Shown: positions 27,103 to 32,178 of the stretch, one piece after another
How the letters are laid out: the number at the start of each line of letters is the position of its first letter
Position numbering within the stretch: the stretch's first letter is position 1
Source of the DNA: a virus
Taxonomy: Duplodnaviria; Heunggongvirae; Uroviricota; Caudoviricetes
DNA length: 42,047 nucleotides
IMG/VR virus record: IMGVR_UViG_2660238591_000003
Direction: 5' to 3' (one strand)
Made by a program: the position numbers and the translations under genes
The notes under the pieces: model-generated
Told to the model about the DNA's origin: nothing
Seen by the model: only the letters and a program-made list of their open reading frames with translations
Database searches by the model: none

Positions 27103-27698
27103 CCCACGAAGCTCATGAGCTGCGCAGCGGCATTATCCGCGTCGCTACGGCTCTTGAATGCCCTGGACAGGATCCAACGCCACAGAACATCGAGTGCGGC
27201 CCTGTAGAGTTGCTGGAACTCGGTTTCGTCCATATTGGCGAAGGCGATGCTGCGGGGGTGTTTGCGGAGGGTGCCGTCAGGCAGCTGTATCGCGTCGTAG
27301 TGGCCGGATTCGATGGTTACCCAGGCGCGGTAGGCGTCGAATGACTTGCAGGCGCTGATGCTGCCCGTGCGCTTATCAGCGATGCGCTCGAGATATTGCT
27401 CAGCGGCATCCAGCAGCGCCCCTTCGTTCCCGCCGTAGGAGGCCAGAAATCTGGCATAGCCGGTCACCAGCTTGCGTTCGTTGGAAGAGATCGCCCCGCC
27501 GGTTGGCTCCCAGTATTCGAACCCGAGGTTTAAAAGCGCGAAGAAGCGGCGGTGGAAAGCCGGATTGCGGACCTGTTTGAAGTCGGCTACCAGCACGGCG
27601 CCGAGTTTGATTTTTGATTGCAGAATATCGCTGGTCTCCGGCGTCGCGGGGATCAGGATTCCTGATGACTGCTTGATGAGTTGTAGTTCGTGCGCCAT
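27099..27698 (-). CDS. hypothetical early protein (DUF1367-like)
   Basis: 199 aa; RBS GGAGAGAAACC before the ATG. Confidence 0.5.
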   Translation of the reverse strand: MAHELQLIKQSSGILIPATPETSDILQSKIKLGAVLVADFKQVRNPAFHRRFFALLNLGFEYWEPTGGAISSNERKLVTGYARFLASYGGNEGALLDAAEQYLERIADKRTGSISACKSFDAYRAWVTIESGHYDAIQLPDGTLRKHPRSIAFANMDETEFQQLYRAALDVLWRWILSRAFKSRSDADNAAAQLMSFVG

Positions 27699-27732
27699 GG
27701 TTTCTCTCCGTGGCGCAGTAGGTTACGGTTGT

Positions 27733-27981
27733 TCAGACCGTTGATTTCATATTATCAGAAGGTTGGGTTACCCGGTAGCCGAGACGGTTAATAAACTGCA
27801 TAAAACCATTAGGAGTAAAGACCTCTTCATCATCCAGCAAAGGCCGCATAGAAACCATGCCATTGACGCGATAAATTAGATGCCTGCCCGATGAAGGAAA
27901 GCTAAACACCACGCAGCCGTCAGACCTTCTTACAATGTCATACCAGTTGTCTTCTGACGTTTGCAAAGCTGAATCACTCAC
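27733..27981 (-). CDS. hypothetical small protein
   Basis: 82 aa; RBS AAGGGAGAAC before the ATG. Confidence 0.5.
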   Translation of the reverse strand: MSDSALQTSEDNWYDIVRRSDGCVVFSFPSSGRHLIYRVNGMVSMRPLLDDEEVFTPNGFMQFINRLGYRVTQPSDNMKSTV

Positions 27982-28098
27982 ATTTATGTTCTCCCTTCGA
28001 GCGACTAACAGACGCGATTAAAGATTGTCGGCAGCAGCATCAGAGGGTTACGCAAATTGCGGTATTCTGAAAAATGCGCGCCAGCCTTAAGCGCAATT

Positions 28099-28332
28099 CT
28101 AATAAAACCAGTCGTCAGCGCTTTCCCAGGTATCCTGGAGGATTGATTCAATTTTCTTTTTATCGTCCTTGTCACCACCAAAAACACTTAACCCATCGGC
28201 CCCGGCACGGCGGATTGTGAGCCTGCAATTGTCATAGTGATCATTCAGGCGCTTAAGCAGTTCTTTCTCCAGTGCTGGTACTGCGCCTTTAGGAAGTTCT
28301 TTCATGCGATCAATGGTTAATTCAACTTTCAT
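28099..28332 (-). CDS. dinI: DinI-family protein (SOS-inducible RecA modulator homologue)
   Basis: 77 aa: MKVELTIDRMKELPKGAVPALEKEL...KKKIESILQDTWESADDWFY, closely resembling E. coli DinI (...ISEILQETWESADDWF). A consensus LexA box lies immediately upstream. Confidence 0.85.
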   Translation of the reverse strand: MKVELTIDRMKELPKGAVPALEKELLKRLNDHYDNCRLTIRRAGADGLSVFGGDKDDKKKIESILQDTWESADDWFY

Positions 28333-28350
28333 AATGGCCCCCATTGCATG

Positions 28351-28370
28351 TACTGTGTTTTTATACAGTA
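28351..28370. promoter_or_regulatory. LexA (SOS) box
   Basis: TACTGTGTTTTTATACAGTA fits CTGT-N8-ACAG. It lies 7-19 nt upstream of the dinI-like start codons and overlaps a TATAAA -10-like element. Confidence 0.8.
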
Positions 28371-28430
28371 TACCTATGCGCGGAAATGATCAACGTTTTA
28401 AGAGCACAAATTGTTAATTTTCTGTCAGTT

Positions 28431-28460
28431 GTAAAAAAAGAAAACCCGCCGTAGCGGGTT
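28431..28460 (-). terminator. intrinsic terminator (- strand)
   Basis: Stem AACCCGC/GCGGGTT followed on the - strand by TTTCTTTTTTTAC; insulates the dinI promoter. Confidence 0.6.
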
Positions 28461-28823
28461 GAATTAGCAGTGTTATATTAAGCGGCAATTTCTTTCTGCC
28501 GGCACAATCCCGAGAGATTCGCCCTCTGTATCGCATCATCAATGAGCACCTGTATGACCATGAGGCAAAGCGTTATCCAACTTGCATTCATCTTTTTCAA
28601 TCAGCAAAGGAGTGGTTAGTGCTGTGAGTGGGCTTTGTTCACTTCATGGTAGATAAATCAGCTATGGATAAGTGATAAGAGGTGAAATCAATCCGAATTA
28701 ACAACCTGAAGCACATTAATCGGAACACAGATATTAAAATCCTAAAGTCTAGTAACAAATAGCCGATATGAGATATTGCTTATCAGTTTAAAAATCATCT
28801 ATTGAAAAAATGGGGGGGAGGCG

Positions 28824-29387
28824 TTGAAGCGAGTAGAGCGCGATTTTATCTGTCTGTTTAATTGTGTGTGGTATCAAGATTTCCCTGTGTTCAAAGGTGA
28901 ATATATCAACCGTTCCAACTGGACCATTCATGTTGGCCTGGTCATGCGCGAGTGTGCAAAGTTAATGGGCGCAAGAACATTTTTTGAACAAGGCGGGCGT
29001 ACCGATGCGGTCCTACAATATCCAGACAATCAAATTTTAACCTATGTTGAGTGGGAGTATAATCAGGCAGACAGAGATAGCGTTAACGAGTTAGACAAAC
29101 TGCTTGAAAAAAACGACAAGTGCTATTTCTCCACATTCATCTCATATTGTCAGCATGAAAACATCAATATTGTTATTGAAAAAGCAAGTAGAATATGGAG
29201 TGAAGCAAGCAGGCCTTTGATTTTTTTTCTTATCACCTATGAGCCTCAAACGAAAAAACGCCGCCATTTTTTAGAACTCAGAACTTATTTTTTCTCAAAC
29301 GGCAAAAGAAAACTAGTTCGCAAACAACCTGCGCTTCCATGGGATATTGAGCAACGAAAATACAATGTCGAAGAAGATGCAGGATAG
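28824..29387 (+). CDS. hypothetical protein in an AT-rich island (candidate accessory/defence gene)
   Basis: 187 aa. TTG start preceded by GGGGGGAGG. Opposite strand to all flanking phage early genes. No motif I can assign. Confidence 0.55.
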   Translation: MKRVERDFICLFNCVWYQDFPVFKGEYINRSNWTIHVGLVMRECAKLMGARTFFEQGGRTDAVLQYPDNQILTYVEWEYNQADRDSVNELDKLLEKNDKCYFSTFISYCQHENINIVIEKASRIWSEASRPLIFFLITYEPQTKKRRHFLELRTYFFSNGKRKLVRKQPALPWDIEQRKYNVEEDAG

Positions 29388-29426
29388 AAGAGACATAAGG
29401 TTTTCACGACAGTCTCGTTCCGAGCC

Positions 29427-29808
29427 CTAACTAAAATATTCTGTTCGGAGCAACCAAATAGCTCTGGCTTTGCTGTGACCATGTTCGCGGTACCAACGCC
29501 TCTCTAGGTCCGCTTCTCGCTCATGGTGGACCAAAATCAAATCTAAAATGACGTGGCTAAGCGGGAGTACATAGTGAATGACAGGATGCTCCGGGCAGCA
29601 CCATACTAATTCAGTTCCCGTCAGAGGTAGGCGTTGCTTCATGATGGGATGAGCGCTCCCTCCAGACAATCCATGCGACAGCCGCCTCCCATGATATATA
29701 TCCATTACCGCCATTTTTCGCTCTGCGGAGATTAACTGCATCACCAAACCTTTCAATGATGAATTTTTCAAATTCTATGCGTTTTTCTTCGTCGATTGTT
29801 GAATCCAT
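29427..29808 (-). pseudogene. possible decayed gene (two overlapping frames)
   Basis: Track ORFs 29611..29808 and 29427..29771 overlap in different frames in AT-rich DNA. Confidence 0.3.
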
Positions 29809-30087
29809 ACCTTCCCCAGAAGAGTCCTACGAATCGCTCTTATTGCATAAAAAATAGCATATACAATAGAGAGTGAAAAACCGACGTAGCGGGTTAACTT
29901 TATGTTACTCATGAGTCTTGTCTCGCTGCGACTTAAAAGCGGAACATTCTCGCGCAAGTTGCGTTGCTAAAGCTACGGGGTTGAATGGCTCTCCATGCCC
30001 ATTTAAGAAGGCATGCGGTGTGTAGTTGAACGTTATTTAAAACACAGATAGAATCAAGAAAAATCCTAAATAAATGGAATATTGTTT

Positions 30088-30468
30088 ATGGCTAAGAAAA
30101 TCGCATTACTGGGCTTTTCTGCTCTTTTTGTTGCAAGTGTTGCTTTTGCTGAAACGACAAGTAACTGGGTTGAGGTTACTACAGCTGATGATGGCATTTT
30201 TTCAGCAAAAAAAGGCACATTTAGAAATGTAAAAGGTGATTCATCTGCCTTGTTCATGTATCAAACAAAAAATAAAAAAGTAGAGTACTACAAAGTTAGT
30301 ATTAAAGATGCCGACTGTGATAGTGGATATGGGGAGATAAGATTCTTCTATATGGATGGGAAATTAGCTTTCAAAGGTGATTATGTTGCTGATGGGAACA
30401 GTGTTGGCGCAGGTATTGGTGATTTTATGTGTGGAGTCAGAATTGGACTTAACACACAAAAAAGTTAA
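30088..30468 (+). CDS. hypothetical secreted protein (moron)
   Basis: 126 aa. Signal peptide MAKKIALLGFSALFVASVAFA/ET; two Cys in the mature part. AT-rich. Confidence 0.6.
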   Translation: MAKKIALLGFSALFVASVAFAETTSNWVEVTTADDGIFSAKKGTFRNVKGDSSALFMYQTKNKKVEYYKVSIKDADCDSGYGEIRFFYMDGKLAFKGDYVADGNSVGAGIGDFMCGVRIGLNTQKS

Positions 30469-30882
30469 ATGAGGGGCATTTGTTAAAAAACAATAGCCCC
30501 ACATTAGATCAATATTGGCTCCGGCATTTCTGGATAAAAGCTTCTATGCTACGGCGCTCATAGCGAACAATCTTAGCGCTGAACTTTACACGGGGCCAAT
30601 GTAGACCGGTGTCGGTGTTCTGTATTCCATTTACATAATGTTTTTTGCGTAATTCCCAGCTTCTGGCATACCTCGCCCGGAGTGAGGAGATCATCAGGTT
30701 GCTCAGTCATGTTATGCCTCGCTGTTATCTGGGGTGATGATTAGCAGCTTCCAGATGGCTGAGACATACATAGCCTGATGTTTCGCATCGACTAGGGCAT
30801 TATGCATGTCACCTTCAAACGGCATGTCCCGAGTTCTCCCTTTTCGCCGCTTTCGCGTCGCATATTCTCCAAACGGTATTTA

Positions 30883-31440
30883 TCAATCATTACTGTTATC
30901 CTCGCAGTAGTAGTGCCGTCCCTCTGGGTCAGTAGATACATGTCCGCAGATATCGCATTCAATTCCAGGAAGCACCGATTCTGACTGCGCTTTGATATGC
31001 AGTCGCGGTTCACCGTCTTTCGGCTCTGGCCACTGGCGGTTTTTGTTAACCGCCAGCTTTTCTACCATCGCCAGGGTAATCTGCTTATCACTGATACCGG
31101 CACGACGTTGCGCATCCCATAACAGGAATTGCATGTCAGCCCATTCGCTCATCTCGTCTGGTTCCGCAGCAGCCTCGATAGCTTCTTTGGAAAGGTGCTT
31201 CAGCGGACCAACTGGACCGACATCGCCGAATGTTTCATCTGACCATGCTGCATGTTCACAGCGTACCTGCTCACGGGCTATCGACTCCAGAACCCCATCA
31301 ATCACCTTCACTGCATCAGCCATTGCGTAGCCGAGATTACCGCCGTCGCTTTGTGCTGCTGCTTTGCTGAGTATTTCGCGTATCTGGTGCAAGCGATCAA
31401 GTGATACAGGACCGTGCGCCGGGTGGTTGTTAGTTGTCAT
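30883..31440 (-). CDS. hypothetical early protein (MazG-like/DUF550-like N-terminus with C-terminal Cys motif)
   Basis: 185 aa; RBS AGGTAGAGGA before the ATG. Ends CDICGH...CEDN. Confidence 0.45.
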   Translation of the reverse strand: MTTNNHPAHGPVSLDRLHQIREILSKAAAQSDGGNLGYAMADAVKVIDGVLESIAREQVRCEHAAWSDETFGDVGPVGPLKHLSKEAIEAAAEPDEMSEWADMQFLLWDAQRRAGISDKQITLAMVEKLAVNKNRQWPEPKDGEPRLHIKAQSESVLPGIECDICGHVSTDPEGRHYYCEDNSND

Positions 31441-31443
31441 GGG

Positions 31444-31644
31444 TTAGTCCTCTACCTTGTTTCCGCAATGCGGGCAGTAATTGAACTTATGGGCGAATCC
31501 AGGATGCGGAACGGCAAAGCGTTTGGTTTTCTCGTTCCAGTCAGCAATTACGATTTCAAAATTTACGACCGCATTAGCCCAGTCACTGGAAAGAACTGGC
31601 TGCGACCCAATCAGGCCGACTATACAGCGATTACATTTTTCCAC
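31444..31644 (-). CDS. small zinc-ribbon protein
   Basis: 66 aa with CNRC ... CPHC. Confidence 0.5.
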   Translation of the reverse strand: MEKCNRCIVGLIGSQPVLSSDWANAVVNFEIVIADWNEKTKRFAVPHPGFAHKFNYCPHCGNKVED

Positions 31645-31648
31645 TGAC

Positions 31649-31843
31649 TCACACCCCCTTCACGCCAATGCCAGCAGTAAATCGCGACGGTGACCAATCG
31701 CAATATGTGTTCGACTCCGTGTGTCCAAAAATTGCTTTACAACGATGGATATGGTGGCAATTACCACATGTTATGCCAGCCGGTAATCGCATCTTGTCGG
31801 GATCGGCTGGGTCATAATTCAACGCCAGTTTTTCGGTTGTCAT
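31649..31843 (-). CDS. small Cys-rich protein
   Basis: 64 aa with CGNCHHIHRC. Confidence 0.45.
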   Translation of the reverse strand: MTTEKLALNYDPADPDKMRLPAGITCGNCHHIHRCKAIFGHTESNTYCDWSPSRFTAGIGVKGV

Positions 31844-32178
31844 GCTGGCATCCTCCCCACGATATCTATAACCCGACGCATAACCGCACTTCCCCGAAAA
31901 TCTGCTGGTAACTCAATCAGAGGCTTACTCGAACCGTATGAGAATCGTTGGAGATCGAAATCAATTACAGCCTTTGGGTCCCTGAACAAATCTAGACGAC
32001 CGTAACGAATGAGTTCGCCGCGTTCGGCTGCTACGCGGAAATACTTCTCAGCAGTCTGACGATGCAGCGACAACATCTGTGATGCCTCGCTAACGGTTAA
32101 GCGTCCACGGATTTTCACCTCTTCGATGATCACCCGGATAAGTGCCGCCTGCTCTTCTGGTGTATTTGGTCTTGGCAT
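31840..32178 (-). CDS. hypothetical HTH-containing protein downstream of O
   Basis: 112 aa with a possible HTH (LTVSEASQMLSLHRQTAEKYF). Overlaps the O stop. Confidence 0.5.
   Translation of the reverse strand: MPRPNTPEEQAALIRVIIEEVKIRGRLTVSEASQMLSLHRQTAEKYFRVAAERGELIRYGRLDLFRDPKAVIDFDLQRFSYGSSKPLIELPADFRGSAVMRRVIDIVGRMPA

Follow-up and report, generated by a model that had tools for sequence, protein, structure and literature searches.

Morons were reportedly defined by Hendrix and colleagues in the phages HK97 and HK022, and the lambda genes bor and lom are examples among the lambdoid phages. The Sp (spackle) protein of phage T4 is a small phage protein with an N-terminal export signal; it acts in the periplasm, in superinfection exclusion. 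Two bacterial proteins of known structure also bear on the locus described here. Protein E (PE) of Haemophilus influenzae (PF16747, Adhesin_E; 3ZH5) forms a six-stranded antiparallel sheet and has a C-terminal helix that is linked via C99-C148 to the end of beta4 (PMC6652776). PseM (also TdeM), encoded by PA0989 of Pseudomonas aeruginosa, is an endolytic muramidase toxin; a Sec leader directs its export, its toxicity is confined to the periplasm, and the immunity gene PA0990 is adjacent to its gene (PMC12494544).

We analysed an ORF in a window (the whole stretch of DNA under study, 42,047 nucleotides) that represents a Rac-like lambdoid prophage of E. coli. A first-pass annotation had read this ORF as a moron encoding a small secreted protein and had hinted that it may act in lysogenic conversion. 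The moron reading is supported by the deviant composition of the gene, a conserved promoter-like element, a hairpin, the occurrence of the gene at unrelated positions and its insertion between int and xis, and we are highly confident that the locus is a moron encoding an exported periplasmic protein. As with the lambdoid morons, it consists of a single AT-rich extra gene with a promoter-like element, a hairpin and an orientation independent of its surroundings, and it can interrupt a pair of genes that are neighbours in a related phage. Unlike them, the cassette is also found on plasmids and integrative islands, and distant members of its family occur as far afield as an inovirus-like element. 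Furthermore, the product is unrelated, in sequence and by family, to Bor, Lom, Cor, Sie and every PHROG. The prophage moron is thus already known as a kind; what is new is a protein family that is absent from curated libraries. The features of the locus and the contexts in which the cassette and its distant relatives were found are collected in Table 1.

Table 1. Features of the cassette and of the block around it in the window, and contexts of the cassette and of distant family members elsewhere.
Feature	Position or loci	Strand	Remark
Relic integrase 3' end (..QVALLKLRG*)	29938..29984	+	left edge of imported block
Sigma-70-like promoter element, TTGAAC-17 nt-TAGAAT	30026..30054	+	ends 34 nt before ATG
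Weak Shine-Dalgarno-like GGAA	30076..30079	+	8 nt 5' of ATG, read from sequence
ORF of the predicted exported protein	30088..30468	+	ATG start, 126 aa
Predicted signal peptide, residues 1-21 (MAKKIALLGFSALFVASVAFA)	30088..30150	+	predicted SPase I cleavage after A21
Predicted mature protein and stop codon	30151..30468	+	105 aa, 11.5 kDa, pI 6.5
Hairpin GGGGC..GCCCC with inner stem	30473..30500		starts 5 nt past stop codon
Frameshifted excisionase-like gene	30509..30710	-	two overlapping ORFs
3'-5' exonuclease gene, 3' fragment	30712..30831	-	120 nt, pseudogene; right edge of imported block
Cassette between int and xis	L013-L022, L037-L039		prophages beside yfhL/acpS
Cassette in early/nin region	L023-L028		directly beside terminator-like hairpin of DinI gene
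Cassette after lysis cassette	L029/L030		prophage edge, bor-like position
Cassette at edge of thrW/proA and other integrative islands	L002-L006, L031		downstream of YecR-family lipoprotein gene
Cassette between recombinase genes	L035		
Cassette at another prophage edge	L036		
Cassette on 108-133 kb E. coli plasmids	L050		one examined is IncFIB
Distant member, 33%-identical protein	L051		5.6-kb Klebsiella element with inovirus-type Gp2 gene
Distant member, 22%-identical protein	L046		T4-like myovirus contig, between gp23-like capsid and sheath genes

A mobile cassette antisense to the early operon

The cassette lies antisense to the early operon of the Rac-like prophage. All of the flanking early and nin-region genes are on the minus strand; the neighbouring phage genes, likewise on that strand, encode a cro-like regulator, a YdaT-family protein, a replication protein, DUF977 and DUF550 (dATP/dGTP pyrophosphohydrolase) proteins, DinI, DUF1367 (NinB-like), RusA, an antiterminator, a holin and a lysozyme. 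The opposite orientation assigned to the ORF in the first-pass annotation is therefore correct. The AT-richness noted there was also borne out: the ORF has 36.8% GC and a GC3 of 26%, against 52.9% GC for the window, and the local GC profile falls to 34-35%, while the flanking early and nin genes range from 50 to 65%.

The ORF is a genuine gene. It has 38 close homologues, and pairwise dN/dS values (Nei-Gojobori) among nine independent copies from different contexts were 0.07-0.25, with dS up to 1.1. Together these results exclude a chance ORF, and the dN/dS values reveal purifying selection. An in-frame TTG at 30082, upstream of the ATG, is not conserved as a start. The GGA of the Shine-Dalgarno-like sequence is kept in all of the upstream regions that were aligned. 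Two antisense ORFs (30066-30257 and 30364-30504) lie inside the selected frame, are unannotated in the corresponding RefSeq record (L001) and were treated as spurious. A search of Rfam with positions 27500-32000 gave no match, and thus no known RNA element lies under or beside the gene.

The interval from about 30025 to 30500 is a self-contained, horizontally mobile moron cassette made up of a promoter-like element, one ORF and a hairpin. When 27-33 kb of the window was compared with the other loci by blastn, the segment common to all close-homologue contexts extended from 30025/30039 to 30466/30488, and the left end of this shared homology coincides with the -35 hexamer of the promoter-like element. 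That element matches the consensus at 9 of 12 positions, and two such sites were found where 6.6 were expected in shuffles. Since the match by itself is no better than chance, the promoter assignment is based on conservation across contexts: in L002, L029 and L030, which lie in other contexts, the two hexamers (TTGTAC / TAAAAT) and their 17-nt spacing are preserved. The coding DNA of these three copies is only about 78-80% identical, and the sequence further upstream is unrelated.

At the other end of the cassette, the predicted folding energy of the hairpin is -17 kcal/mol on the plus strand (z = -4.9) and -17.8 kcal/mol on the minus strand (z = -3.9). A hairpin of different sequence occurs at the same place in L029 (z = -2.2) and a weak one in L002 (z = -0.7). 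This element is a putative terminator. The plus (coding) strand carries no U-tract after it and the minus strand has a U-rich tail, which suggests that it may mainly stop convergent transcription.

The gene is rare and its contexts are diverse (Table 1). Of 5,426 complete E. coli genomes 4 carry it, as do 26 IMG/VR viral contigs, and a scan of species-representative genomes, with patterns that reach close relatives alone, found only two loci. No match was obtained by tblastn against 50,697 isolated phage genomes, and the known phage carriers are prophages and metagenomic viral contigs. Carriers include isolates from human, bird and frog. Within prophages the cassette occupies three different positions (int/xis, the early/nin region and the prophage edge after the lysis cassette), the last of these corresponding to the place of bor in lambda. 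The neighbours on the IncFIB plasmid are IS1, IS3, a DUF4145 gene, an S24 peptidase and a type I R-M system. The distant members in the T4-like myovirus contig and the inovirus-type element share protein similarity only. We considered the YecR-family gene as an obligatory partner and rejected this, as it was present only in island contexts.

In the prophage of E. coli IAI1 the int and xis genes share 4 nt. A Kluyvera prophage (L038) has orthologues of both, with 95% aa identity for int and 83% for xis; there they are 527 bp apart with the cassette between them, and the gene likewise separates int from xis in L013-L022. Insertion between otherwise adjacent genes is thus demonstrated for the cassette at int/xis, as distinct from its present site in the window. 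This makes a clean and sharply bounded moron, whose insertion is apparent from int and xis adjoining in one prophage and flanking the cassette in another. Homology to a housekeeping periplasmic protein had been named as one finding that would speak against a moron. The contexts examined lie within or at the edge of mobile elements, with the sole exception of one tandem-domain member of the family (P0260). A housekeeping periplasmic gene was therefore rejected on the grounds of the rarity of the gene and its predominantly mobile-element context.

In the window the cassette sits within a decayed block of foreign origin, a point absent from the first-pass annotation. Positions 29938-30831 align with the int-cassette-xis-exo arm of L013-L022 and L032 at 85.7-95% identity. 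The relic integrase end corresponds to ..AQVALLRRRC* at the homologous place in L014. The excisionase-like gene is split into an N-terminal part (30573-30710) and a C-terminal part (30509-30694), which jointly reproduce an intact 92-aa ORF of L014 (2395-2673); there are matches here to PHROG excisionase / DNA-binding and to HTH_17, and RefSeq annotates nothing at this place. For the exonuclease, the RefSeq record (99.9% identical) states 'incomplete, missing N-terminus', and the full gene is present at 2597-3169 of L014. The cassette was thus imported within an int'-cassette-xis'-exo' block from another prophage, and the block has since decayed. Three complete E. coli genomes share the locus at 99.8-99.9% identity, and the ORF at 99.8% over 501 nt. 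The ORF has stayed intact amid the decayed int, xis and exo sequences, which again points to it as the part under selection.

Predicted export and structure of the product

The Sec-type leader proposed in the first-pass annotation agrees with the sequence. MAKKIALLGFSALFVASVAFA has a charged n-region with two lysines, a 17-residue hydrophobic h-region and A-x-A at -3/-1, and can be laid out as MAKK / IALLGFSALFVASV / AFA, followed by ET. There is no cysteine at +1 of the cleavage motif (AFA/ET), which rules out a lipoprotein, and residues 1-76 of the product contain no cysteine. Ala-21, at -1 of the leader, is conserved in 91% of 58 diverse relatives. An N-terminal hydrophobic stretch is present in 116 of 119 single-domain family representatives and a lipobox-like motif in 12 of the 119. 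From these features we infer that the product is exported by Sec, cleaved after Ala-21 and soluble in the periplasm. The Bor/Lom-type morons, in contrast, encode outer-membrane proteins or lipoproteins.

The two cysteines that had been noted in the mature part are C77 and C115, and both are invariant in both of our alignments. Exactly two cysteines follow residue 25 in 116 of the 119 single-domain representatives. A C77-C115 disulfide is presumed to form in the mature protein. Structure prediction had been suggested as a check, and the AlphaFold2 model obtained with a 21-sequence alignment (mean pLDDT 82, pTM 0.70) is confident for the mature protein, where pLDDT is about 90. Averages over ten-residue blocks between 31 and 120 are 89-94, most mature residues are above 90, and only the leader is of low confidence, with values below 50 at residues 1-4 and 16-22. 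The model has seven predicted beta-strands (27-33, 36-41, 46-48, 51-60, 65-73, 81-87 and 93-100), a short helix that carries C77 and a C-terminal helix (106-125) that carries C115. The mature protein is thus predicted to fold as a beta-sheet with a C-terminal helix stapled to it by the C77-C115 disulfide.

The protein family and its resemblance to Protein E and PseM

The 38 close homologues (52-98% identity) come from Citrobacter, Kluyvera, Klebsiella, Raoultella and E. coli, and all are annotated as hypothetical. A profile search of 1.84 billion cluster representatives yielded 367 relatives at E <= 0.001, of which 71 also passed E <= 1e-10. Among the relatives are some tandem two-domain proteins and a few fusions. 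In one fusion the partner looks like a trypsin-like protease, judged by its sequence alone. Tandem members are also found in Burkholderia genomes, and relatives in environmental betaproteobacteria; the tandem-domain member P0260 has a chromosomal context in which no mobility genes were called. The chromosomal and Burkholderia settings of tandem members indicate that the domain is a general periplasmic module and not a dedicated anti-phage one.

In an alignment of 58 sequences that are 21-46% identical to the query, invariance is confined to C77, G82 and C115, and W27, G103, A21 and Met-1 reach at least 90% conservation. Among charged positions, K41 (K/R in 95%) and D98 (D/E in 88%) are conserved best. 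No obligatory catalytic-type residue was seen across the 58 divergent relatives or the 119 representatives. As only two Cys, two Gly, one Trp, Met-1 and Ala-21 reach 90% conservation, the product is probably not an enzyme.

The first-pass annotation had offered no family assignment, and we found no family for the ORF product in Pfam, PHROGs, NCBIfam or PADLOC (E <= 1 in PADLOC and PHROGs). The known defence and superinfection-exclusion profiles of PADLOC-DB and PHROGs gave no match to it either. Pfam searches with the 58 divergent relatives returned three scattered one-off matches, none of them meaningful, and the family profile against PDB sequences a lone chance match to a GST (E = 0.76). 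Across Pfam, PHROGs, NCBIfam, PADLOC, the PDB sequences and hhalign comparisons, we found no sequence tie to any characterised protein. In the literature, no mention of WP_053271636 was found, and the titles and abstracts listed for Adhesin_E / PF16747 held nothing informative.

The best solved-structure match of the model was Haemophilus PE, at a structural identity of 3%. The model shares its layout with PE and with PseM, the published accounts of both agree with it element by element, and it contains the antiparallel sheet and disulfide-tethered C-terminal helix that define the PE fold. Foldseek against viral models placed phage proteins named 'Surface-adhesin protein E' on top (E about 1e-3, TM 0.5-0.6). 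Foldseek against the PDB gave nothing below E = 0.2 and did not recover PE. As this last search was unconvincing, we regard the similarity to PE and PseM as one of fold and as moderate. PF16747 matched neither the ORF product (E <= 1) nor any of the 58 family members (E <= 0.01), whereas PE itself, the positive control, scored 65.6 bits to Adhesin_E. Comparison of the family by hhalign with the PE sequence and with a PE alignment covered the leader only, with a probability of 29% for the PE profile. Furthermore, PE is a lipoprotein with a Cys lipobox, whereas the ORF product has an A-x-A signal peptidase I site.

The structure 9m3l was identified as PseM. Part of the pseM gene was rebuilt from mutagenesis primers (PMC12494544 supplement) and a full copy was obtained from a metagenome; this copy matches the PDB sequence with E = 2e-125. 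PseM has strands beta1-beta7 in the same order as the model, and its C87, located after beta5, is bonded to C134 in the following helix (PMC12494544). It differs in length (186 aa against 126 aa) by the addition of beta8 and of the dimerisation helices alpha5/alpha6. The C-terminal helices of PseM form a head-to-tail dimer that builds the active site, whereas the model of the ORF product ends at residue 125. PseM and the present family share no conserved polar residues, and hhalign of the family profile against PseM gave a probability of 2%, again over the leader only. The loci also differ: pseM has an upstream Nudix gene (PA0990-like), whereas the cassette holds a single ORF and its neighbours change with each context.

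Possible roles of the product

As an overall explanation we lean towards a mobile moron cassette whose exported protein protects the envelope of its carrier. In the lysogen, with the early operon repressed, the promoter of the cassette would drive transcription of the gene, and the protein would serve as a stoichiometric binder or blocker in the periplasm. The favoured form of such protection would be superinfection exclusion or the neutralisation of an incoming protein that attacks murein or the envelope. We put forward this mechanism of exclusion or protection only tentatively and by analogy. Its logic would be comparable to that of T4 Sp, a protein that is helical and unrelated in sequence to the ORF product. 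The lack of conserved catalytic residues and of an immunity partner travelling along hints, more weakly, at a binding protein rather than an enzyme. A phage-centred envelope role is favoured by the presence of the family in virulent and filamentous-type elements besides temperate ones, and a role that serves the element by the varied carriers, the promoter-like element belonging to the cassette and the orientation of the ORF against the lytic operon.

The resemblance to PE raises the alternative of a host-interaction factor, a product of lysogenic conversion that would raise the adhesion or serum resistance of the lysogen by binding vitronectin, laminin, plasminogen or similar components of the host matrix or complement regulation. 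Conversion genes are common among morons at prophage edges, bor and lom of lambda being examples, the carriers include human, bird and frog isolates, and PE and the 'Surface-adhesin protein E' proteins head the solved-structure and viral fold comparisons. However, the SPase I site and the absence of a lipobox, an outer-membrane signal or an anchor leave nothing to place the product on the surface. Neither the product nor 57 relatives match Pfam Adhesin_E, profile-profile comparison with the PE alignment aligns the signal peptide only, and the family has members in a virulent myovirus and among environmental betaproteobacteria. We regard this host-interaction role as distinctly unlikely. A cell-wall hydrolase or toxin acting from the periplasm like PseM, for competition or as an accessory to lysis, is judged highly unlikely: the shared unit includes no immunity gene, whereas pseM adjoins PA0990; the C-terminal beta8 and alpha5/alpha6 dimerisation segment is missing from the product; the family has no conserved acidic or catalytic residues and its hhalign match to PseM covers the leader alone; and a lysogen could hardly retain a periplasmic toxin that is made constitutively, whereas the dN/dS values show purifying selection on the gene.

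A periplasmic protein that carries or binds a small or hydrophobic ligand (a lipid, a lipoprotein, an LPS precursor or a signal molecule) and plays no direct part in interactions with phage or host is an alternative that we consider unlikely. In its favour are low-Z structural matches to LolA, Der p 7 and YceI-type proteins, as well as the YecR neighbour in the islands. The truncated or frameshifted state of the flanking int, xis and exonuclease genes would be expected if the ORF were itself a decaying, functionless passenger of a dead int'-xis'-exo' relic block. This is very improbable, as the ORF is intact and, over the 501 nt compared in the three E. coli genomes, 99.8% identical, its dN/dS against copies in other contexts is 0.14-0.23 and its promoter elements are conserved.

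Envelope protection of the carrier by a mobile moron thus remains our preferred reading. A bolder version of it would unite the soluble, mobile-element-borne members of the family with PE and PseM in one ancient superfamily and make the cassette a portable periplasmic exclusion or immunity factor; taken as a whole, we think this fairly unlikely. The fold does link PE and PseM, each of which has been treated in the literature as structurally unique. If the superfamily reading were true, these would be disulfide-stapled periplasmic sheet-helix proteins and the cassette a new type of portable factor. Its product would bind, for example, murein or an incoming murein hydrolase from a phage or a T6SS, and prophages, virulent phages, filamentous elements, plasmids and islands would exchange the factor with one another.

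The relic int-xis arm of a different phage that persists in the window illustrates a route by which such cassettes are transferred. The family is absent from Pfam, PHROGs and NCBIfam yet comprises 367 cluster representatives, and it therefore deserves a family entry. If a phenotype were found for the gene, a role would be assigned to a widespread exported domain of mobile elements.

Surroundings of the secreted-protein gene

The early region of the window holds remnants of another prophage's integration arm (Table). The secreted-protein gene itself is intact and is enclosed by these integrase, excisionase and exonuclease relics. A perfect inverted repeat lies between the stop codon of the integrase remnant and the -35 hexamer of the cassette (the promoter-like element, the gene and its hairpin). 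The repeat was not kept in the L013-type copies, in which the cassette stands between int and xis. It could be a former int terminator or a regulator site.

Table. Coordinates of relics, repeats, open reading frames and family members
Feature	Locus	Coordinates	Strand	Remarks
AT-rich ORF, 187 aa	window	28824-29387	+	second AT-rich + strand ORF; within 1,435-bp segment
ORF, 65 aa	window	29611-29808	-	weak phrog_660 match; within 1,435-bp segment
Integrase 3' end	window	29938-29984		relic
Inverted repeat	window	29993-30014		CATGCC-N10-GGCATG, perfect, 6 bp
Excisionase	window	30509-30710		frameshifted relic
3'-5' exonuclease	window	30712-30831		5'-truncated relic
Site of homologue and YecR-family gene	L002	5594-5923		integrative islands L002-L006, at thrW/proA and another site
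Site of homologue and YecR-family gene	L003-L006	5628-5948		as L002
Family member	L046	5998-6393		T4-like myovirus contig; flanked by gp23-like capsid gene and sheath gene
Family member	L050	5001-5381		IncFIB plasmids; beside IS elements, DUF4145, S24 peptidase, type I R-M system
Family member	L051	2917-3321		5.6-kb Klebsiella element carrying inovirus-type Gp2 gene

A hairpin-bounded segment beside the DinI gene

The terminator-like hairpin of the DinI gene is present in two copies in the window (28440-28465 and 29875-29900, 85% identical), and these flank a 1,435-bp segment. Related prophages (L023-L028) carry a single hairpin without the insert, and the segment is restricted to the three E. 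coli genomes that share the window locus at 99.8-99.9% identity. The 187-aa product of its + strand ORF had no match in Pfam, PHROG or PADLOC, nor in 50,697 phage genomes searched by tblastn. The segment (28440-29900) looks like a second moron.

The family in other elements and architectures

Architecture variants of the wider family were noted among proteins P0045, P0047, P0110, P0158, P0167 and P0098. Some are proteins of about 240 aa with two domains in tandem, Burkholderia being among the carriers; others are fusions: one to a partner that by eye appears to be a trypsin-like protease, one with an N-terminal membrane segment and one with an unknown C-terminal domain. The Cys pair is retained separately in every domain copy of these tandem and fusion forms.

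Members were also found on a phage contig, plasmids, a Klebsiella element and integrative islands. In the islands (L002-L006), a gene for a YecR-family lipoprotein (PF13992) precedes the homologue by 50-140 nt, and just past the homologue, on the opposite strand, is a conserved, very basic ORF of 49-52 aa. This arrangement, which is missing from the prophage contexts, may constitute a cargo module of small envelope proteins.
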